Shown here in pieces: positions 15,601 through 57,103 of a stretch of 64,000 nt of DNA. This DNA comes from a virus (taxonomy: Duplodnaviria; Caudoviricetes). The stretch is taken from the IMG/VR virus record IMGVR_UViG_3300035497_000412, one strand, 5' to 3'. Position 1 is the stretch's first letter. Each line of letters starts with the position of its first letter. Both the position numbers and the translations under genes were made by a program. A model generated the notes under the pieces. It worked only from the letters and a program-made list of their open reading frames with translations. It had not been told where the DNA came from and made no database searches.

Positions 15601-18600
15601 ATTAACCAACTAGTCCATGTCTCCAGAATAATCTGGGAACATATCTTTAATAGCCTTAGAAAATTCCTCATCAGTAAGACCGGTTAATTGACTAGCGTTG
15701 CTTGCTACTATGCTAGATATATATTCTTTTGACCATCCAGAAGGAAGAGAATTAGTACCGATAGCAGTAGATAAAGACCTCTAAAGATTAGTAGTATCTG
15801 ATTTTACATCGGCGACATCAGCATTAGCATTTCCCATTAATGAAGCATATTCCGCAACAGAAGCTGCCTTTTCAGCATTTTCTATCGCAGCATCAATATC
15901 AGACTAGTCAATAGTCAATGCTCCATCTTCATTTCTATAAACATATTTAGCTAATTCAGGATACTCCTAAATAAGAGCTAATACCTCACTATTAACATCC
16001 TATAAAGCTTCCTTCCATTCTTGAGTGCCCTTAGTACAAGCATTAAGAGTTTCAACAACAGAAGTATAATCATCAAAAGCACTTGACAAAGATTCTGCCG
16101 CAGATTTAGCATCGTCATAGGCGTCAGATAAGTCACTTGCAGTTTCGGCTGCTTTCTTAGCGGCATCCGCATCAGCGTTACAAGCTTTTGTTAATGCGTA
16201 TATAGCAACAATTAAGCCACCAGCGACCAAAATAGCGACTATTCCCCCCATAGCAGTTTTCCAAGTTATCTGCGCTTTTATGTTCTTCCAAACTGTCGCA
16301 GTATTAACTTTAATGGCCGTAGTCATTCCGGCTTCAGCAAGTTCAGCTTGTTTCTCTGCTGTAATTTGTGCTCCAGTAGCTAATACATCACCAGTTTTGA
16401 CATCAATCAACTCTTTTGTGCTCTAAACCTCTTTGTCTGTCAATAAAAGATCAGCTATTTTAGCAACTAAACCTTCTTCACTAGTAGAAGTTACAAATTT
16501 ATAGACATTTCCCAAGTTTGTAAATCCAGTAGTTAGCATGGGAATAGTCATACCAAGAGACATCATAATCTATGTTGTCTTTTCCCAGGTGCTCAAATCA
16601 TCATTAGTAAATGTGTCTTTAATTGAAGACAAGGCATTTAAACCCATTCCAAAAGAAGAAATACTTTGAACAGCTCCCATGGCAGCTGATCCAATAGACT
16701 AATAAACAAGTGTCTATCCTGATATTTTTGCAGCTGCTTCTTTTGCCTAATCCCCAGCCCTTTCAGAAGCATCTCCTGATAATTCTTGTGCTTGTGCATT
16801 TTGTCGAGCTTTATCAATTAATTCGCCTATTTTTGAACTCGCAATTTCTGTTCCACCAGCAAGCGTCTTAATAGCATTATTCTAAGCCTCTGCTGAAGTT
16901 GGTACCTTCTAAAAGGCTTCTATTAATTTATTCTCCGCTTCAGCCAATTGTTCTGGCGTACTACTACTATCTTGTAAAATAGTCTCATAATTATTTAAAG
17001 CAGTAGTAAAATCATCTGTTGACAATCCTGCTTCATTCATTTCATTGGCTAACTTAGCAATAGCTTTTGCTTGATTCTCAGTAGTTTCAGTTTTATCTCC
17101 AATGGAAGCTTGTAATTTTTTAATAGCCGAACTTGTTTGTACAACTTTTTCTGCCGCATCTGATAACCTTCTCTAGAATTTTCCAAACTCTTCAGTAGGA
17201 CCTTTCGTAGCAACTGCTAAATCTTGCAAAGCATCTTGAAGAATCACTGTCGCCGCTATGATATCCTACTGAGTAGAGTTAGTGTCTCTTAATGTATCTA
17301 AATATAACCTCTATGCTTCTTTGGCTGTATTCACTTTCTCGTTATTTTCTTCTAAAATTCCAGAAGCATCCTGAATTAGTGCATTTGCAGTCTTTATAAC
17401 ATCAGTTTTATCATAACTAATAATCGAGTCGCTCTATTCGGTTAAGTTATGCTAAGCCTACACACCATATTTCTGACTCGCCTACTAAGCAGATGCTACA
17501 TAAGCCTATTCAGTTGATTGTGCCATTTTAGCAGCCTATACTGCGGCTTCAGCATAATTATTTGCAATTTTCATCGCTTCTTCTGCTGCAGCTCGTTGCT
17601 CTTTAGTCATACTTTTTGTAGCAGCATCTAAATGTTTCTATAAAGTATAAACAGATTCAAGCTATTGCCTTAAACCTTTGACTTGAGTTGAATCAGCTAT
17701 ATCCTTAGTCATTACCATAGCTAAAGAATAAGCTTCATCTTTAACTTCTTGTAATTCTCTCTATGTTACACCAGAAAAAGTTCTAAAATTATTTAAAGCA
17801 GAATTAATACCTGCCGCCATTTGGTCTTTAAACACAGAAGTTGCAATAAGACCGGCCGCAGCTAATACTCCCTTTAATCCTCCAAGAGAATTAATTAAAG
17901 AAGAAATTCCATCTAAAACTTTAGATATTGTATCATCTACGCCAATAAAGAAATCTTCATCAATTAAACTAGAATAAATTGCTTCAGCAGAAGCAGTAAC
18001 TCTATCTCTGGCAGCTTCCCAAGATTCAGCATAAATATCAGCTTGCTCTTGTAATGAACCGGTGGAACCTTCTGCAGTTGCTAAATTCGTCTAAAATGTA
18101 TCCCAATTTTCCATAAGGGAAATTAGTTGCGTATACTATCTAACCATTTACCCCTTTTCATTTCTAAAAAGGACAGACTATATCTTCTTCTCAAAAAGAG
18201 AAGTCTCCCATTTCGCTCTGGTTAAAGAGCTACGTCTTTCGACTAGTCGTTGAACCTTCTTCAAAAAATTTTAAAGCTTGGCTGCGGATTGTCCATATAT
18301 CTTTAATCTTTTTACCGTACCTTCTGCATTACCAGTTGCCATTAATCAAGTTATTAATTTGGTAATTAAAGCTTTAGGAGTTCCCCGCAATTAGAGAGAT
18401 TTTAAGCGAGCATTAGTTTCAGTTTACCCGCTACGTTTTCAGCTAAGGCGACTTGCTAGTCTTTTGATAAAGTAGACCATTTTGAACCCATTTCATCTAA
18501 AATGGCATCCATTTTTTTCAATTCGCCATTCTAATCTTTAATATTAATTCCGACTTTTTCAAGAGCCTAAGAGTAAGTACCAAGAGTAGTCCCATCGTCT

Positions 18601-23123: not shown

Positions 23124-24439
23124 TTACTCAGCAGGACGCTCAGTGGTCATAGTATCGGGATCAACCACAACACCATAATCATCCACAACATCCATAGACT
23201 TAGTTCTCTGACGCTTCAGCTCACTAGAAGCCTCGCCGCCCACGATCTGCAGGGCCGCAAGAACCTTCTTAGTCTTATTGAAACGAGTATAATCAGGGAA
23301 CGCATCCATAGTAAAGGTAAATGTCAATATCTTCCAGTAAGCTCGCTACTGCTTACTGCGTTCTCTTATGAACTGCTTATAGTTTCCTATAATGTTGAGA
23401 CTATATCTTCATCTTATTTAAATAAATAAGAGATTCCCATTTCCACTCACTTGAGTGTACTTCCTTACGGAATAGTCGTTGAACTTTCTTCTAAAAATAA
23501 GTTTTTAGAAGCTTAGCTGCTGATTGCCCAATCTTTATAATTTTCAAACATTCACGCTTGTCATTACTGACTACGTTGTAGTTTATAAAGCTCTAAGGGT
23601 TTTCCAGCAATTAAGGAATTAAACTTCTCGGCTTGTCATCAAGCCGCCAAGCGCATTTGTCCACTTGGATCTCCACTAGGAGCCATAGTAAATGTGAAGT
23701 TAGACTGAATCTTGCAGTTAGGAATCACAAACTCAGCAGGCCAGTCAACACCGTTAGTATCACGGAATGTAGTAGAAGCTTCCAGATAATAGTTACCACC
23801 GAACTTATCAGCAGTAATATCAATCTGCTGGACGCCAGAAGCCTTCTCAGTATAGTAGTCCACCAGAACCACACAGCCATCATAGAACACACTCAGATCA
23901 TCAGTAGCTTTCAGAGTAATGGTCTTATTCTCAACATCCACAGTCTCAGGAATATAAGGTTCAGAACAAACTTCACCATTCTGCATCATCATCACATAGA
24001 TGTAGTCCTCACCATCAGCATCATAAGGGACATTATCAAGGTCAATAGTCACCTCAGACACCAGATAGTCGTCATCACCATAAGAGCCACTAGAGGTCAC
24101 ATGAACATCAGCAGTCTGCTCAATAGTGTGAACTTTAATAGTATTCTCTTCATCAGGCTCAATCAGACCAGCGCCAGACAGCAGCATGAAACCAGCAGGA
24201 GAAATCAGAGCATCCTCCATGGTAAAGGTGATTGTACGCTCACCGTCCCAAGCGATCAGACGGGGGTTACCATTACCACCCTGGGCATACACTGTAGTAG
24301 CAGCACCTTCTAGACTAGAAGTCTTTAAAGTATCAAAATAAATGACAGGCTCGTTCTTATAAAAAATCTTATTGCCGACTTTTTGCGCTGCCTTAGCTTT
24401 CAGCACGACATCGCATACATTACGAACACCATACTTCAT
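23124..24439 (-). CDS. major tail (tube) protein, 325 aa, 2 exons (24439-23663, 23324-23124)
   Basis: Spliced junction GDPS|TFTFTMDAF is in frame. Beta-rich tube-like sequence, high-expression codon bias, position in tail module. Confidence 0.8.
23325..23662 (-). ncRNA. group I intron in major tail gene (338 nt)
   Basis: P1 CCAAGU/GCUUGG, P10 AAAUG/CAUUU, GUUCAACGACUA and AAGAUAUAGUC core, terminal G 23325. Confidence 0.93.
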
Positions 24440-36900: not shown

Positions 36901-38552
36901 ATCTGGTTTAACTATCATTTGAGTTAAAGTTTGAATTAATTTATCATAACTATAAGTATTTTTATAGCCTGCGGTAGTTCCTTTTATTCCACACAGCTCG
37001 CTATTTCTATGTGCGTTCTCTTATGAACTGCTATATATTCCTATATAGAGTAGACTATATCTTCACCTTCAACTTTACTTGTTAAGGGCCTCCCGCTTCG
37101 ACTCGCTTGAGTCTACGTCATTCGACTAGTCGTTGAACCTTCTCCTTGCGGAGCTTGGCTGCTGATTGTCCGTTCTGGACTTCCCAGCAATTCAAGAGGT
37201 TTGCTTTTGCTAATTTCTTAACAATGATACTAATTAAATTAATATAAATTTGACTTTGATTTAATGTTTCAGATTCTTGTGTTGTACCATCCATGCACTA
37301 ACGAGACACGTTCATTAGCAATTATATTGGACTATATCATCAACTATATAAAAATAGCTGTCACGCGCTTCGATCGGTGATAAAATCCGATCTACAAGAT
37401 TACACTCATCATCTTTAGTCTCTACACTTTCTTCTATTCAACATAGAAGCTTAGCACGGGATTCTCTTTTGAAGTTCCCCGTTAGCCCAATTAACTTGGA
37501 CACCCCTTTATCACGGGTTCACGCAATTTTCTTTAGTGATTCACACCACTAAGCCCCCTAATGTCGAGGGATAATAATTTGCTAGAGCATATCTTGGTCA
37601 ACACCAACGCATTCTTCTATAACTCCTGCGTGTTTGCGCAAGCCACGAGAACTCTCTCTAGCTGCAACGTTTTCAATATCTGAACCATTTTTAAGAATAA
37701 TTTTACACTTATCTTTACCCATTTGGGTCTAACCTCGACGCCAGTCTATTTCTCGTTTAAACGCTGGTATCTTAGCACAAATATCATTAACTTTCTCTTG
37801 CAAGATTTGAGAACTTTGTTCTTTTCCTCCAGCAGTAGTAAACTAATGAGACCCTGGATATAAAATTCCTCTAATTAATAAAATCATAACTGAAAGGAAA
37901 GATTTTGAATCTTTATATTCTAATAAGTTCGCAACGCTTATTACGTTCTCCAATGAACTGCTTATATTTTCATATAAGAATAGACTATATCACGCTTTAT
38001 TATGTTAATAAAGCCCTCCTTTTTCGATTTAAGGGGTTCTCACCCGCCGCATTAACTTCGGCCCTACTCCTATTGCTTCTATTTTTATTCCGAGGAAGCT
38101 TTCTCAGGATAGTCGTTGAAGTTTATAAATAAATCATTTATATTACCTGCGGATTCCCATATTAAAGTAACTTAGGGTTCCCGCATTTTAAGAGGTTTGT
38201 CCACAGAGATCATATGAAGCTCTCTGATTTGGCGCAATTCAATTTACGCTCTCGGATATACAGCATAAACATATTTATATCTCATGCCTATTCTTAAAAA
38301 TACCCTCTAATAAAAAAATAAATTAAAGGTTATTTTTATTTCTTTTCCGTCATGATTCTTATAATAAATGCCATCTTCTTTTTCATAAGTTGGCTTGCCA
38401 CCAGTCTACATAAAATCTACGAATAAATCAGGATATTCTCTCCAAAAGGCAAAGTATTGCCGCAAGACAGGCTTAATTGGGAGGATGCGTTCTTCGGAAA
38501 TGCCAATCTTCTTTTTATTGTTATTAATTAATAATAAATCTTCTAACGCCAT
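33975..38552 (-). CDS. terL: terminase large subunit, 597 aa, 6 exons (38552-38246, 37910-37567, 37318-37242, 36979-36869, 35885-35795, 34838-33975), code 15
   Basis: Spliced product has Walker-A-like PRAYSKS, Walker-B GVIEE, motif-C YITTA, REYESKW, and nuclease SVDVG, IDGNGLG, KDKFS. Exon total 1794 nt. Confidence 0.92.
34725..35588 (-). CDS. intron HNH/NUMOD1-type endonuclease fused in frame to terL exon 6 (287 aa in code 11; 537 aa to 33975 in code 15)
   Basis: HRLVAEAF..VNHIDGNKLNN..NLEW plus NUMOD1-like repeats; reads ..SQGKM|ESKWTG into the exon. Confidence 0.85.
   Translation of the reverse strand: MKNIIIDNISTSYYITQDGKCFNSNTNKYLKGQVNERNGYFSYNLTLPSGKKKRCYAHRLVAEAFIEKTDDKEDQVNHIDGNKLNNCVDNLEWATSEDALENELRKYNHVFCFNKDKQLVAEYLTAADASAATKVNYSIILQELNKDVKALSGNFYWSYSSELGEVKNYKNNGRAKAVNQYDLNGKYITTYPSVGTATRALGLKSHAHIGECCRGKIKTYKGFVWRYVDDMISPSGESQRDISEISQGKMESKWTGTVEDAFFDGEKFDRNRILQKPEYEYSGRSSS
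34839..35794 (-). mobile_element. group I intron terL-5 (956 nt) with HNH ORF lacking its own stop
   Basis: P1 GAGUAU/GUACUC, P10 ACUUUU/GAAAGU, covarying P7 GAUCA/UGAUC, terminal G 34839. Confidence 0.92.
35886..36868 (-). mobile_element. group I intron terL-4 (983 nt) with HNH ORF in P8
   Basis: P1 GGCGCAU/GUGCGCC, P10 UGGU/ACCA, AUCCCGUGCUAAGC, GUAGAGACUA and GAUAUAGUC core. Confidence 0.92.
35900..36598 (-). CDS. intron-encoded NUMOD4-HNH-NUMOD1-type homing endonuclease, 232 aa (code 15)
   Basis: MWKRI..YEISDDGQV..HRLVAENF..VNHKDGDKENNRLENLEWNTSSENNQHA, several TAG. The C-terminus overlaps the intron S element. Confidence 0.85.
36980..37241 (-). ncRNA. group I intron terL-3 (262 nt)
   Basis: AAUUGCUGGGAA, AAUCAGCAGC, GUUCAACGACUA, AAGAUAUAGUC core; junction restores YI/TTAG. 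Confidence 0.9.
37319..37566 (-). ncRNA. group I intron terL-2 (248 nt)
   Basis: P1 CCCU/GGGG, P10 CAUUAG/CUAAUG, same core type as terL-4. Confidence 0.92.
37911..38245 (-). ncRNA. group I intron terL-1 (335 nt)
   Basis: P1 GCGU/GCGC, P10 UGAAU/AUUCA, UUCAACGACUA and GAUAUAGUC core; interrupts the Walker-A-like motif. Confidence 0.92.
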
Positions 38553-45009: not shown

Positions 45010-45189
45010 ATGAAAACTGTAAATATTATCCTTACCCCAAATCAAGCTCAATTCTTATTCATCCTTGAAGATTCGATCCCCTGTTTTATCTATCAGGGCG
45101 ATTATACAGGAGAATGGGTAATTAAATACAGAAAAGAAGATGAAGAAACTGTAAATAAGATTTTTAAAAATATTTTAGGAAAATCTTAA
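45010..45189 (+). CDS. small hypothetical protein
   Basis: Promoter 44949, RBS cassette. Confidence 0.6.
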   Translation: MKTVNIILTPNQAQFLFILEDSIPCFIYQGDYTGEWVIKYRKEDEETVNKIFKNILGKS

Positions 45190-45240
45190 AAAACCTATTG
45201 ACAAATTAAATCGTATCTGCTATAATAAAGACAGTTAAAA

Positions 45241-45369
45241 GAGGTAGGCCAAGGTAGACAAAGTAGACGCAAGTCGAACTAAGACTACAAGGTAAGAATA
45301 AGATCGGATAAGAGAGATTGAGATGCGGCAAAGCCACTAGATGCTTAAAGCCACTTATCGCCTACCTTA
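45241..45369 (+). ncRNA. structured 5' leader/ncRNA, copy A
   Basis: Homologous to 48561-48693; closing helix AGGUAGGC/GCCUACCU. Confidence 0.65.
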
Positions 45370-45389
45370 AAAGAAAGGAATTGATAATT

Positions 45390-45689
45390 ATGAAAATCTA
45401 TGAAGTTTTTACCGCCGATTCTACGAACAGTGACCGTAACCAAGAAGTATGCGCCTATGTTGCATCTAAAGAAATTGCAGGAAATTATATCCGCGCTAAT
45501 CTCGTTGAAATTTATAACGTCCACAAGAAAAGTCCTTTGTGGAATCATGGAATTGATATCCTCTGGTGCGCAGATTGGACAGAAAAGGAATTCCCCGGTT
45601 TTATCCCCGATCTTGTGTACGCGGGGAAAGACAGCCACGGATTAAAAGTCACCATGTTTTTTAAGGAAATTGACGTAATCGAAAAGTAA
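45390..45689 (+). CDS. 99-aa hypothetical protein
   Basis: AGAAAGGAATTGATAATT-ATG cassette. Confidence 0.7.
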   Translation: MKIYEVFTADSTNSDRNQEVCAYVASKEIAGNYIRANLVEIYNVHKKSPLWNHGIDILWCADWTEKEFPGFIPDLVYAGKDSHGLKVTMFFKEIDVIEK

Positions 45690-45751
45690 CAATTAAGAGT
45701 TCTTCCCTTGGATAATGTTTTCAAGGGAAGAACTAAGTTAGAAAGGTATTA

Positions 45752-46120
45752 ATGACTATGAAAATTTTATACATGGCTGATGATGGTGAAGAATTCGAAA
45801 CCGAAGAAGAATGTAAAGAACACGAAGAAGCAATGAGAGTAAAAGATGAATTTAATTCTCGTATGAGACTTTATGACGCAAAAATGAATAGATTTGACCC
45901 TGATATTGAAGATATTGAACTTGAACAAATTACATACGCTTATTTTGCGGATGAAGAAACCTTCAACTATTTCAATGACTTTTTTAATGAGAACGGTTTG
46001 TTTTCTCCAAAAGATGATGGATGTAGTTTTTCTAGTGGACATAGTTTCATGTGGGATGGTAATGGCAAATGTTGGGTATCTGTTAATGATTTCATTAACG
46101 AGCTTATGAATCATCTTTAA
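45752..46120 (+). CDS. acidic hypothetical protein, paralog of 52636
   Basis: ADDG.EF...EECK.HE motif shared. Confidence 0.75.
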   Translation: MTMKILYMADDGEEFETEEECKEHEEAMRVKDEFNSRMRLYDAKMNRFDPDIEDIELEQITYAYFADEETFNYFNDFFNENGLFSPKDDGCSFSSGHSFMWDGNGKCWVSVNDFINELMNHL

Positions 46121-46219
46121 AATGAAAATTTGAAAAACTTGTAAAATCCAAAAGAAGCTCTAGTAAAGAAATTGCGGCCGCCCCCTAAAATTCTTTACTA
46201 GGGCTTTAGTAAATTTTTA

Positions 46220-46625
46220 TTTTGTGCATTTTGACGAATTTAGCGCTTTAAAGCGCTACACTTTAACACTTTAAAGCATTTTCTAGTAAATATTTTTTAC
46301 TTTAACACATTAAAGCTTTAAACTTTAACACATTAAAGCTTTAAACTTTAACAGTTTAAAGCAGTGCCCGGGCGCCAAGGAATGATGCGCCCGGATTTTA
46401 CACTTTAAAGCATTAAAGCAAATTTTATTTACTAGGCAATACTTCAACACGCTAAAGCGCTAAATCCCTAAAGTTTACTTTAATACTTTAAAATATTAAA
46501 GCGAAGTTAGTTCAGACTAATTGTAGTTAGTTGCCGCTAACGGACCCCACTTTGGCACTTTAAAACATTAAAGCAAAAAAAGTTTTAAAGTTTAACGCAT
46601 TAAAGCGTAACAGTTTAAATCCTAA
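46220..46625. repeat. octamer-periodic palindrome island with 27-nt GC hairpin
   Basis: Tandem ACTTTAACACATTAAAGCTTTAA; hairpin 46368-46394; partly duplicated at 47718-47815. Confidence 0.75.
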
Positions 46626-46721
46626 AACTAAAAAAGTTGAGAAAATTTTAAAATGACTATTGACAAATCGATAATATGTGATATAATGAATACAGAAATT
46701 AAGAAAAGGAAGGTGCGTCAC

Positions 46722-47006
46722 ATGAAACGCTCTGAAATGGAAAAACTGGTTGTCCTGCTGCTGAAACACAACATCCCCTTTGAACTTGGTGTTCAGTATT
46801 ATGAGAACGCTTTGCAAGTGTTCTATCCCTCTAAGACTAACCCCGTGTGTGATGTGGTTTGCAATCCTTATTCCATCGGTTTTGATAAGGGGCTGTTGGA
46901 GATGAAGGGCCTTGTTCCTTTTGATGATGATGAAGTCGAGGGGTATCTGGATGCAGAAGAAATTCTGGTTCGGATCGAATGTCACTATTTGGCACACAAA
47001 AATTAA
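46722..47006 (+). CDS. 94-aa hypothetical protein
   Basis: Promoter 46660, RBS, GLLEM.GL..VEGYL motif. Confidence 0.75.
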   Translation: MKRSEMEKLVVLLLKHNIPFELGVQYYENALQVFYPSKTNPVCDVVCNPYSIGFDKGLLEMKGLVPFDDDEVEGYLDAEEILVRIECHYLAHKN

Positions 47007-47065
47007 TTTCAAAAAAGGCTTGACAAAAGCCTAAATAAGGCTTATAATGGCCATAGGAACAAACG

Positions 47066-47135
47066 AGGGGTCAAGGCGGATACGCCAGATAAGAGTAGAA
47101 CAGGATGAGACGTTTAAAGCCCTCTACCACCCCAC
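47066..47135 (+). ncRNA. structured leader, short copy C
   Basis: CAAGGCGGAUACGCC..GAUAAG..UUAAAGCC, closing GGGGU/ACCCC. Confidence 0.45.
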
Positions 47136-47161
47136 CAGAAGAAAGAAAGGAATTGATAATT

Positions 47162-47455
47162 ATGATGATCGATGCTAGAGAGGCCAGAGCAATGACTTTT
47201 GCCGCCATTGAAAACCAGAAGAAGAATGAAAAGCTTGCGGCTGAGCAGTGGATCGACAGCAAAATTGCTAGTCTGGTGACAGAGGACGCAAACAAGGGCA
47301 ATGGTTCAACCACCGTTTATGTACCTGATGACGCTGGAGTAAAGGCCAATATTGTTAAGCAGATTCTTTCTGAATATGGTTACACGGTTAAGGTCACTAC
47401 AAAGGAGTATAACCGCAAGCCTGCCACATTCATTACTATCACTTGGAATTACTAA
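47162..47455 (+). CDS. 97-aa hypothetical protein
   Basis: RBS cassette; terminator AAACCCCTGG..CCAGGGGTTT at 47460-47485. Confidence 0.75.
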   Translation: MMIDAREARAMTFAAIENQKKNEKLAAEQWIDSKIASLVTEDANKGNGSTTVYVPDDAGVKANIVKQILSEYGYTVKVTTKEYNRKPATFITITWNY

Positions 47456-47486
47456 ATGGAAACCCCTGGAGCACCAGGGGTTTTCT

Positions 47487-47960
47487 TTGTGCAATTTGAC
47501 GAATTTAGTGCTTTAAAGTGTTGAATTCGTCAAATTGCACAACACTTTAGCACTTTAAAGCATTGTATTGGGCCGGCCGCCAAGGACTGGTGCGGCCGGA
47601 CTTTAGCGCTTTAAAGCGTTAAAGCGATTTTTTACGTAGTTCGGCACTTTAGCGCTTTAAAGTGTTAAATCACGAAACTATATCTTCTACAATACTTCAA
47701 TGCTTTAAAGTATTGAAGTTAGTCATCGCTAACGGACCCCACTTTAACACTTTAAAGTGTTAAAGCAAAAAAGTTCGCCGCTTTAAAGTTTTAAAGTGTA
47801 ATGCTTTAAATCCTGAAAGTGGCAGTTAGTCTATACTAACTGCACAATTTGGCCGCTCCATCTTTGTGCAATTCGACAACGTAGAAAAACTTAACCGTTT
47901 TTTGTATAATTTGACGATGTAGAAAAATCTACTCGTTTTCTACTCGTCTTTTGTGCAACT
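47487..47960. repeat. octamer-periodic palindrome island with 27-nt GC hairpin
   Basis: Perfect 24-bp palindrome CTTTAACACTTTAAAGTGTTAAAG at 47742-47765; hairpin 47573-47599. Confidence 0.75.
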
Positions 47961-48051
47961 TTTTTTGAGATAATGTTTGACTTTTGAATATCCCTGTGAT
48001 ATCATGATAATAGGAATTGAACCTAAACAATTTAATAAAGGGGTGCTATCT

Positions 48052-48513
48052 ATGAAAAAGATGCTATGCTTTGACCTTGATGGAACGATCGTTGACTTCT
48101 ACGGTGTGGAAAACTGGCTTGCGATGCTAAAACAAGAAAATCCTGCTCCGTACGAAATCGCTGAACCGCTTTATGACATGGATAAGCTAAATGCTATTTT
48201 AGACAAGCTTGTAAAGATCGGCTGGGAAGTACGTGTAATTACATGGCTTGCAAAAAATAGCTCTAAGCCCTACAAAGACGCCACGCGAAAAGCAAAAAGG
48301 GAATGGCTGGAAAAGTACCATTTTCCCTACGAACATTTCCACGGCGTAATGTATGGGGCAACCAAAGCGGATAGCGTACGCAAATACCTATCTAATGACG
48401 ATATCGCGATTCTGATAGATGACAATGCGAAAGTTAGAAGTGGGTGGACTTTAGGTGCGACAATTGACCCAAGTGACGGAAAGTTACTTGAAAAACTTTT
48501 TTCACTAATTTGA
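48052..48513 (+). CDS. HAD-superfamily phosphatase (5'-nucleotidase-like)
   Basis: FDLDGT motif I, VIT motif II, K, and LIDDN motif IV. Confidence 0.85.
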   Translation: MKKMLCFDLDGTIVDFYGVENWLAMLKQENPAPYEIAEPLYDMDKLNAILDKLVKIGWEVRVITWLAKNSSKPYKDATRKAKREWLEKYHFPYEHFHGVMYGATKADSVRKYLSNDDIAILIDDNAKVRSGWTLGATIDPSDGKLLEKLFSLI

Positions 48514-48560
48514 AAAAAAGGGGGTTGACAAATCCAAAAATAAGGCTTATAATGGCTACA

Positions 48561-48693
48561 GTGATAAGGCCAAGGCGGACAAAGTAAGCGAAAAGCCGAA
48601 ATAAGAACGCAAGGTAAGAACAAGATCGGATAAGTAAGAATGAAACGCGGCAAAGCCACTAGATAACTTAACGCCACTTGTCGCCCTTTATCA
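48561..48693 (+). ncRNA. structured 5' leader/ncRNA, copy B
   Basis: Aligns with 45241-45369 with compensatory changes. Confidence 0.65.
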
Positions 48694-48716
48694 ACGCAAA
48701 GAAAGGACTTGATACC

Positions 48717-49508
48717 ATGAATTTAAACCAGTTAAACATCGATCGCCGCCGCCACTACATTTTAATGGTAGATACTGAGACTGCCAATTCTCAAGATGAG
48801 AATGGTAAGGTTTGCCCTTATTCCGCGCTTGTCTATGACTTTGGATGTGCGGTCGTAGACAAGCAAGGTAATGTATACTACACTTTCAGCGCCATCAACA
48901 AGGACATTTTTATCGGTGAGCGTGACCTAATGCGTTCCGCGCACTATGCCCGGAAAATTCCCCGTTATCTAGACGATATCCAGAGCGGCAAGCGCCAGTT
49001 AATGAGTTGGGCAGATATTAAGCTCAATGTTTGGGCTATTATGGCAGCTTTTGGAATCGACACCGTTTGCGCGCACAACGCCCGGTTCGATTATTATGCC
49101 ATTCTTGCTACTGAGCGTTATATCTCTAAGTCCTATGACCGTTATTTTTTCCCATTTGGGACTATTTGGTGGGATACGCTCAAGATGAGCCGCGATGTTA
49201 TCCACAAACAACCAACTTATAAGGCTTTTTGTGAAAGTAATGGGTACATTACCAAAACTGGCCAGTGTTCCGCAACAGCACAGAACCTTTTCCGTTTTAT
49301 TTCCCATGAAAACGACTTTGAAGAAAGCCATACCGGGTTAGAGGACGTTCTGATTGAAAAGGATATTCTTGCCTATTGTTTCCGCCAGCATAAGCCGATG
49401 CGAAAAACCCTTTGGCAAGATGTGGAATTGACCGATCGGCAAATTGAAATCCTGCTGGAGCGGCAATGGGAATTTATCCCAACTTTCAATAAAAAGAACC
49501 TTTTCTAA
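48717..49508 (+). CDS. DEDDh 3'-5' exonuclease
   Basis: VDTET, AHNARFD, WWDT, HTGLED motifs. Confidence 0.88.
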   Translation: MNLNQLNIDRRRHYILMVDTETANSQDENGKVCPYSALVYDFGCAVVDKQGNVYYTFSAINKDIFIGERDLMRSAHYARKIPRYLDDIQSGKRQLMSWADIKLNVWAIMAAFGIDTVCAHNARFDYYAILATERYISKSYDRYFFPFGTIWWDTLKMSRDVIHKQPTYKAFCESNGYITKTGQCSATAQNLFRFISHENDFEESHTGLEDVLIEKDILAYCFRQHKPMRKTLWQDVELTDRQIEILLERQWEFIPTFNKKNLF

Positions 49509-57007: not shown

Positions 57008-57103
57008 TTGACAAATGACTAGAAAGGTGGTATAATTGCGCCGGCCCTTGACTAGCGTGCGGGCCGGAAATTCCATTATACCACAGCTTCAGAAAAAAGT
57101 CAA
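57008..57103. promoter_or_regulatory. convergent promoter pair flanking a 27-nt GC hairpin
   Basis: Plus TTGACA-17-TATAAT, hairpin 57041-57067, minus TTGACT-17-TATAAT. Confidence 0.75.

Follow-up and report, generated by a model that had tools for sequence, protein, structure and literature searches.

In lambdoid phages, the nut and put sites sit in the repressor-controlled early operon. The put RNA of HK022, a phage of Proteobacteria, consists of two simple stem-loops of about 70 nucleotides (nt), directs processive antitermination without any phage-encoded protein, and is portable. Early expression of phage anti-CRISPR operons is tuned by hairpins in the 5′ untranslated region (UTR), to which Aca1 and Aca2 bind (bioRxiv 10.64898/2026.07.27.740549), and the RT-2 motif (RF03077) is an uncharacterised RNA of unknown function (Weinberg et al. 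2017, PMC5737381). Here we describe a leader RNA found in a 64,000-nt stretch of DNA (hereafter the window) from IMG/VR record IMGVR_UViG_3300035497_000412, an uncultured gut phage of the Caudoviricetes, in which one folded RNA leader is common to the starts of three early genes. This leader is a new family within the known class of structured 5′ leader RNAs.

By analogy, the Aca1/Aca2-bound hairpins, which are far simpler, come closest as a functional precedent. Like the leader, they are conserved structured RNAs that directly follow the start site of an early phage operon under repressor control and precede the first start codon by about 20 nt. Each Aca motif, however, comprises one short hairpin or two, imitates the protein's DNA operator and has its binding protein encoded in the same operon, whereas the leader is a 130-nt three-way junction, for which no co-occurring protein gene was found. 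With put the leader shares its nature as a promoter-proximal structured RNA in early phage transcripts, but it has no sequence likeness to put, and is larger and more elaborate. As is generally expected of riboswitches, the leader is a conserved, structured, aptamer-like RNA in the 5′ UTR, and it resembles orphan and translational riboswitches in its multi-helix junction, invariant internal-loop bases, GNRA-capped peripheral arm and occasional tandem arrangement. Unlike riboswitches, it has no recognisable expression platform and no metabolic theme downstream, and among the genomes sampled is carried only by mobile elements.

The region between 42 and 64 kb of the window is the early region of the phage, in which about 25 consensus sigma-70 promoters are arranged on the plus strand. 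Most of the early-region promoters sit 16-20 nt from a common ribosome-binding site (RBS) of the type AAGAAAGGAATTGATA. Three of them instead head long leaders of about 147 nt (copy 1, c1), 97 nt (copy 2, c2) and 148 nt (copy 3, c3). The promoters, leader copies and genes are listed below with the scores by two covariance models, R1, seeded with c1, c3 and three metagenomic relatives but not with c2, and R2.

45198..45226, plus strand: promoter of copy 1, 12/12 match with TTGACA, 17 nt and TATAAT; TG before the −10 element
45242..45367, plus strand: leader c1, full form; R1 144.5 bits, E 1e-33; its ends are the outer P1 pair A45242-U45367
45374..45689, plus strand: 99-amino-acid (aa) open reading frame (ORF) of c1 with its RBS AAAGGA; ATG at 45390
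47020..47048, plus strand: promoter of copy 2, 12/12 match with TTGACA-17-TATAAT
47067..47133, plus strand: leader c2, minimal form; R1 46.6 bits, E 1.9e-9; R2 55.9 bits, E 1e-12
47146..47455, plus strand: 97-aa ORF of c2 with its RBS; ATG at 47162
48525..48553, plus strand: promoter of copy 3, 12/12 match with TTGACA-17-TATAAT
48563..48690, plus strand: leader c3, full form; R1 127.5 bits
48702..49508, plus strand: 263-aa DnaQ-like 3′-5′ exonuclease of c3 with its RBS; ATG at 48717; phrog_20187 and phrog_192

The initial annotation had aligned 45241-45369 with 48561-48693 and taken 47066-47135 as a shortened version. Both observations were upheld: c1 and c3 align along the whole length with 75% identity, and c2 is recognised by R1 though it was outside the seed. 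The 25-mer CAAGGTAAGAAYAAGATCGGATAAG is common to two sites in the window, against a chance expectation of 0.00. As the next R1 match after c2 (46.6 bits) drops to 14.9 bits, the window carries exactly three copies. Each copy begins 3-14 nt downstream of the expected start site, and the gap from its end to the ATG of its own gene is 19-23 nt. The location between promoters and the RBS of unrelated genes, also noted at first sight, holds as well: all three promoters are 12/12 matches, and the three genes are mutually unrelated. No known family was matched by the 99-aa ORF; the 97-aa ORF, which is followed by an intrinsic terminator near 47460-47490, gave weak matches to phrog_5321 and phrog_8208, both function-unknown PHROGs. 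The c3 locus was found to be identical in two other samples.

Members of the leader family are about 80-135 nt in length, are located at the predicted mRNA 5′ end, and fold into a three-way junction closed by P1, with four unpaired junction bases in all, AUAA. The P2 arm consists of the junction pair, an AA bulge, a 4-bp stem, tandem G-A and one Watson-Crick pair, beyond which follow an AGUA/GAA S-turn (sarcin-ricin-like), a short stem and a GNRA loop. The P3 arm begins with the 6-bp P3, which contains a bulged A, and continues through a small loop, P3a, a 1x3 loop, P3b and an internal loop to P4. P3a is an invariant GG/CC, adjoined by a covarying pair (92-180), and P3b is usually UAAG/CUUA, with UACG/CGUA, UGCG/CGCA or GAUG/CGUC in some members. 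Near-invariant in the P3 arm are GGAUAAG, UUAANGCC and the loop GAGAUUGAGAU / UAGAU; the P4 hairpin is variable. A GA...GA signature beside P4 would be compatible with a kink-turn. The helices of the three copies, all on the plus strand, were mapped as follows.

c1, P1: 45242-45249 with 45360-45367
c1, P2 arm: 45250..45291; junction pair C45250-G45291, stem 45254-45257 with 45285-45288
c1, distal P2 arm: tandem G-A, pair A45260-U45280, AGUA/GAA S-turn
c1, P2a hairpin: 45266-45275, with GCAA (GNRA) loop
c1, P3 arm: 45296..45359; P3 is G45296-C45359 plus 45298-45302 with 45354-45358, bulged A45297
c1, P3a: G45306-G45307 with C45351-C45352
c1, P3b: 45309-45312 with 45344-45347, then the purine-rich internal loop GAGAUUGAGAU / UAGAU
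c1, P4 hairpin: 45325-45337
c2, P1: 47067-47071 with 47129-47133
c2, P2: C47072-G47088 plus 47075-47078 with 47083-47086; GAUA cap
c2, P3: G47093-C47128 plus 47095-47099 with 47123-47127
c2, P3a: 47103-47104 with 47120-47121
c2, P3b: 47106-47109 with 47113-47116; two G-U pairs and a 3-nt closing loop
c3, P1: GAUAAGGC with GCC(CU)UUAUC; 2-nt bulge
c3, P2: C48571-G48613 plus 48575-48577 with 48608-48610
c3, P2a: 48588-48589 with 48595-48596
c3, P3: G48618-C48682 plus 48620-48624 with 48677-48681
c3, P3b: 48631-48634 with 48667-48670
c3, P4: 48647-48659

The helices recognised at the outset are real, the closing stem being P1, the inner stem P2 and the GAC-GCAA-GUC hairpin P2a, but that set was incomplete, since the best-covarying P3 was missed together with P3a, P3b and P4. 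In c2, all core helices are kept by compensating changes, and both the P2 extension and the P4 arm are missing. This joint loss suggests that the P2 and P4 peripheral arms touch one another around the conserved core. The S-turn tip of P2 is dispensable, as it is missing from c2 and from the relatives L042, L043 and L047. In a subfamily (L086, L049, L085, L091 and L102), the transcript starts with CAGUUCAAGGGAACA and UCCC(U) stands just 3′ of P1; the GGGA/UCCC thus available can make an extra outer helix lengthening P1. A reading of the invariant GGA as a CsrA site was ruled out, because its GG is held in P3a by the invariant CC and covariation is seen at the adjoining pair (92-180).

Covariation was tested on 45 distinct sequences aligned to the covariance model, with 500 shuffles as control. 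Paired cells amounted to 86.3%, compared with 62% in the shuffles, and changes on both sides were found at 30 of the 35 pairs. The covariation score was 0.540 against 0.159 for shuffled alignments (none of the 500 as high), and fell to 0.10 or less when the partners were slid. Best among the helices was P3, which appears as ATAAG/CTTAT, ACAAG/CTTGT and GTAGA/TCTAC. Three further pairs were detected by mutual information: 12-73 (G-C in 23 and C-G in 17 sequences, unpaired in none), 78-186 (four pair types, unpaired in none) and 22-62 (G-C in 32 and A-U in 7). These pairs are free of fitting bias because they are outside the model that made the alignment. In the model-free analysis with MAFFT and RNAalifold, P1, P2, P3, P3a and P3b were recovered, with compensatory change at 13 of the 20 pairs. 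G-U pairs are frequent (25 of 44 sequences at pair 99-171), and would be C-A on the opposite strand, indicating that the sense strand is the folding strand. These observations place the existence of a real structured RNA family practically beyond doubt; covariation among homologs, on which the initial annotation had let its proposal of a novel RNA stand or fall, turned out to be strong. An alternative without RNA structure, in which the repeats act as DNA, being an operator or a site of recombination, or belong to a coding region, can draw on a TTG-started ORF (45318-45689) that formally overlaps the 3′ part of c1, but is hardly credible in view of the compensatory changes that keep pairing, the strand-specific G-U pairs, the insertions and deletions that are not multiples of three, and the absence of whole arms from c2.

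The leader was then compared with known RNA families. With all 4227 models of Rfam 15, only four group I introns, off the copies, were detected in the whole window above the gathering score. These introns (70-102 bits) are located at 18154-18455, 23376-23717, 37031-37251 and 37961-38255 (minus strand). At E≤10 within the region 45150-48800, the copies remained unmatched except for RT-2 in c3 (15.4 bits against a gathering score of 40), and on ten homolog loci again only RT-2 appeared, at 20.7 bits (L029), below the same gathering score of 40. The early view that the leader is a novel RNA thus survives, with this sub-threshold, partial RT-2 match as the single hit. The RT-2 matches fall at the same place in c3 and L029, and the alignment is limited to the 5′ hairpin with its neighbouring bases (model positions up to ~60) and an unstructured A/U-rich 3′ tail. 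The first ~40 positions of RT-2 align base for base with the P2 arm, as GGnc-AGAC-AAAGUA-[GNRA hairpin]-GAAAU-AG-gnCC. The pseudoknotted 3′ domain of RT-2 (222 positions) has, however, no counterpart in the leader, while the conserved P3-P3a-P3b-P4 core of the leader is absent from RT-2. No reverse transcriptase, the neighbour expected of RT-2, was found near the leaders, which are accompanied instead by small ORFs and by exonuclease, SprT-like, ArdC-like and HNH genes. The order of AGUA, short stem, GNRA, short stem and GAA in the P2 tip is the layout of the sarcin-ricin loop (23S rRNA helix 95); this likeness is one of layout and is confined to the single dispensable module. Mimicry of the rRNA GTPase centre, hinted at by CAGGAUG and UUUAAAG in c2, was considered and set aside, the topology appearing to differ. 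No Rfam match was obtained to Phage_pRNA (the phi29-type packaging RNA), which is free-standing, unlike the leader, which belongs to mRNAs. No published description of the leader RNA was found in a literature search, and none of the first 200 supplementary files of Fremin & Bhatt 2021 contains its conserved 18-mers; it may be among the unnamed candidates of that study or of other large microbiome screens.

No match was obtained by blastn or megablast searches of 50,697 phage records, with either the leader or its surrounding 6 kb as query, nor by a strict 24-mer scan of IMG/VR. A degenerate pattern built from the features common to c1, c2 and c3 matched 9 metagenome contigs and 3 contigs of metagenome-assembled genomes (MAGs; Oscillospiraceae, Acutalibacteraceae and Clostridia), each match being ~102 nt in length with the same layout. 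Model R1 was positive in 7 of 151 sampled Oscillospiraceae genomes and in 3 of 151 Acutalibacteraceae genomes, and a looser pattern followed by model R2 gave 40 matches in 38 IMG/VR contigs. The single hit of another IMG/VR scan, looser than the 24-mer one, was L021, which lacks P1 and P2 and was rejected as a chance match. Samples of 150 genomes each, class-wide and phylum-wide, added nothing further at the limited sensitivity of 22 candidates scored per genome. In total, more than 60 relatives were collected from human-gut metagenome contigs, Oscillospiraceae and Acutalibacteraceae MAGs and IMG/VR viral contigs; the family occurs across gut Oscillospirales (Clostridia), in their phages and integrating elements. 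Among the phage records of GenBank, similar DNA is confined to unannotated entries named 'Bacteriophage sp.', from human faeces. Tandem leaders were observed twice, as listed here.

L074, 3340-3592, minus strand: two complete leader copies, 6 nt apart
L096, 9090-9289, minus strand: partial internal duplication of the leader, either genuine or an assembly artefact

All the relatives stand between a strong promoter, which in most cases has inverted repeats on its flanks, and an RBS. The leader starts 5-40 nt after the promoter and usually ends 10-35 nt before the start codon; in L041, L055 and L081 the distance to the start codon is 112-137 nt. The relatives head the operator-controlled early operon of elements that encode an integrase or a serine recombinase, and in L052 also the large terminase, which identifies the carriers of the RNA as integrating phage-like elements. 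The first gene most often encodes either a coiled-coil protein of 89-93 aa (phrog_6244) or a protein of 107-113 aa whose sequence starts with MKYNLSKIM; other small ORFs also occur in this place. At least seven unrelated kinds of first gene are served (the coiled-coil and MKYNLSKIM proteins, proteins of 101 aa and 55 aa, the window's 99-aa and 97-aa ORFs, and the exonuclease), and further genes of the operons encode SprT-like, ArdC-like and ribbon-helix-helix proteins, an HNH nuclease and a replisome organiser. Searches of the common downstream proteins with Pfam, NCBIfam, cluster names and Atlas returned only 'hypothetical', a weak likeness to Gp157/DUF7307 and a C-terminal likeness to RecE / lambda-exonuclease family proteins. 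As to the size of the elements, L052 is an IMG/VR contig of 11,026 bp in all, and ~12 sibling contigs range from 7.7 to 44.5 kb, most of them 11-15 kb; this group of small elements carries the integrase, large terminase, HNH nuclease and leader-led early operon. Their size and content suggest that L052 and its siblings are phage satellites rather than full prophages.

The ORFs of the window have no protein family in common with the 38 RNA-bearing loci. The leader is absent upstream of the exonuclease gene at 20 IMG/VR loci whose exonuclease is 46-57% identical, only a short plain leader precedes the 70% identical exonuclease on contig L024, and no leader copy was found on the whole contigs of five near-complete phage relatives (133-148 kb). 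The lack of a common protein family, the phage relatives without the RNA and the service to at least seven unrelated genes suggest that the partner of the leader is supplied by the host. Since the RNA is portable, moving between unrelated genes, and no partner gene travels along in the examined sequence, it probably plugs into conserved host machinery or chemistry.

We tentatively favour, without going so far as to call it probable, the view that the leader is a cis-acting element that binds a host protein or metabolite and thereby sets translation or stability. Among the cis-regulator, ribozyme and decoy functions listed in the initial annotation, cis action is preferred because of the sense-strand position between promoter and RBS in more than 60 relatives; the expression platform that could be expected of such a regulator was not found. 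In this scheme, the leader would act on its own transcript and, by binding a host-supplied protein or small molecule, would set the translation or lifetime of the first early message; the phage would have taken the module from its host's temperate elements and inserted it ahead of three of its own early genes. Tandem copies are known for sensor and regulator RNAs, and those in L074 and L096 are counted for the same view. Several points weigh against it. There is no terminator between RNA and ORF, and a search for a conserved anti-Shine-Dalgarno (SD) sequence gave none; the best duplexes between element and SD are weak (−3 to −13 kcal/mol) and lie in differing columns, and the SD is mostly unpaired in the minimum-energy folds. 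The long distances in L041, L055 and L081 imply that closeness to the RBS is not required, closeness to the transcript 5′ end being steadier. In addition, a phage-encoded partner may lie elsewhere, as the window covers only part of the phage genome. A special form of the favoured cis-acting leader, in which it is the aptamer of a novel riboswitch or of a sensor of host state, with a host metabolite or second messenger as the signal, is conceivable but not likely; phages, satellites and integrating elements of gut Clostridia would then use the aptamer at the head of the early operon to gate the first genes expressed upon entry or induction.

The steadier closeness to the promoter than to the RBS could also reflect put-like processive antitermination, in which the nascent leader binds RNA polymerase for read-through of terminators or pause hairpins of the early operon. 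In temperate elements, the leader stands first in the early operon under repressor control; it is indifferent to the gene that follows, and no element-encoded partner was found, just as put needs none. Moreover, in most relatives the first gene is followed by strong GC hairpins. These hairpins, however, have no U-tract in the sense direction, one of them reading as an opposite-strand terminator, and no sense-strand intrinsic terminator was seen inside the operons of the relatives. In the window, the c2 unit has a lone gene followed by a canonical terminator, beyond which lie 500 nt of non-coding repeats, so that read-through has no visible purpose there. Since the leader also exceeds the two-hairpin put RNAs in size and elaboration, we consider antitermination improbable.

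Slightly less probable still is a passive 5′ stabiliser, a compact fold that prolongs early mRNA life by blocking the 5′-to-3′ exonuclease RNase J1 or the entry of RNase Y, as do the Bacillus 5′ stabilisers and the flaviviral exonuclease-resistant RNAs (xrRNAs). The 5′-end location, the three-way junction with tightly stacked helices, the tandem copies in two elements and the indifference to the downstream gene agree with such a role. Known Bacillus 5′ stem-loop stabilisers need a position within a few nt of the end, whereas the single-stranded 5′ tail of the leader varies from ~3 to ~40 nt. Neither a 5′-end pseudoknot nor a conserved 5′ flank was found across the family, and the invariant unpaired bases are more numerous than a simple roadblock needs.

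Transcription from the strongest early promoters, the several copies in the phage genome with tandems elsewhere, the restriction to mobile elements among the sampled genomes and the sarcin-ricin-loop layout of the P2 tip (AGUA-stem-GNRA-stem-GAA) are what a trans-acting decoy or sponge might show, that is, an abundant early RNA, whole or cut from the mRNA, that titrates a host protein such as a defence nuclease or a factor recognising the sarcin-ricin-like P2 tip. We regard this as doubtful, for the leader is always in sense and directly 5′ of an ORF, in no case standing alone with a terminator of its own, and c2 keeps the core without the S-turn tip. Small ribozymes are common in phage genomes, and the complex conserved fold with invariant unpaired bases could suit a self-cleaving ribozyme that trims early mRNA 5′ ends; this is very unlikely, as the ribozyme families of Rfam 15 were unmatched even at E≤10 (hammerhead, twister, twister-sister, pistol, hatchet, hairpin and hepatitis delta virus-like), and the four-base junction is without hammerhead, twister, pistol or hatchet core sequences.

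The leader adds to the known RNAs a structurally rich family of more than 60 members that is missing from the current Rfam release. In gut phages and integrating phage-like elements, whose Oscillospirales hosts are difficult to culture and poorly understood, this RNA occupies the point at which early gene expression begins. Identity of the partner would show how the first messages of these elements are timed or protected; a portable part for expression in Clostridia, or a new RNA that senses a ligand, could also come of it.

Other non-coding elements were observed in the relatives and near the copies. In most RNA-bearing elements, a second conserved non-coding element, without Rfam match, follows the first gene.

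L026: 6567-6686, minus strand, second element
L040: 1930-2080, second element
L043: 1072-1194, minus strand, second element
L047: 1929-2052, second element
L074: 2929-3048, minus strand, second element
L090: 1627-1758, second element
L098: 912-1043, second element

Its hairpin 1, with the loop CCGACCAAAGC, reads as an opposite-strand intrinsic terminator. Hairpin 2, which lacks a U-tract, has a 10-13 bp stem and the loop (A)TTATA(G/A)C, and 10-25 nt separate its end from the next RBS. In L041, this hairpin pair is located between the leader RNA and the first gene. At the same relative place in the window, after the c1 gene, a 12-bp hairpin with the loop GATAATGTTTT was found at 45699-45733. 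On the minus strand of the window, consensus promoters at 57103, 55131, 53222 and 50825 each stand directly before a GC-rich hairpin of the type GGAA(A)TTTCCGGCC, and similar hairpins lie at 46365-46400 and 47570-47600; these promoter-hairpin units may encode small antisense RNAs. Finally, the non-coding islands at 46200-46620 and 47500-47830, which sit between the leader-bearing transcription units, are dense in TTTAAAG-centred palindromes (CACTTTAAAGC and variants).

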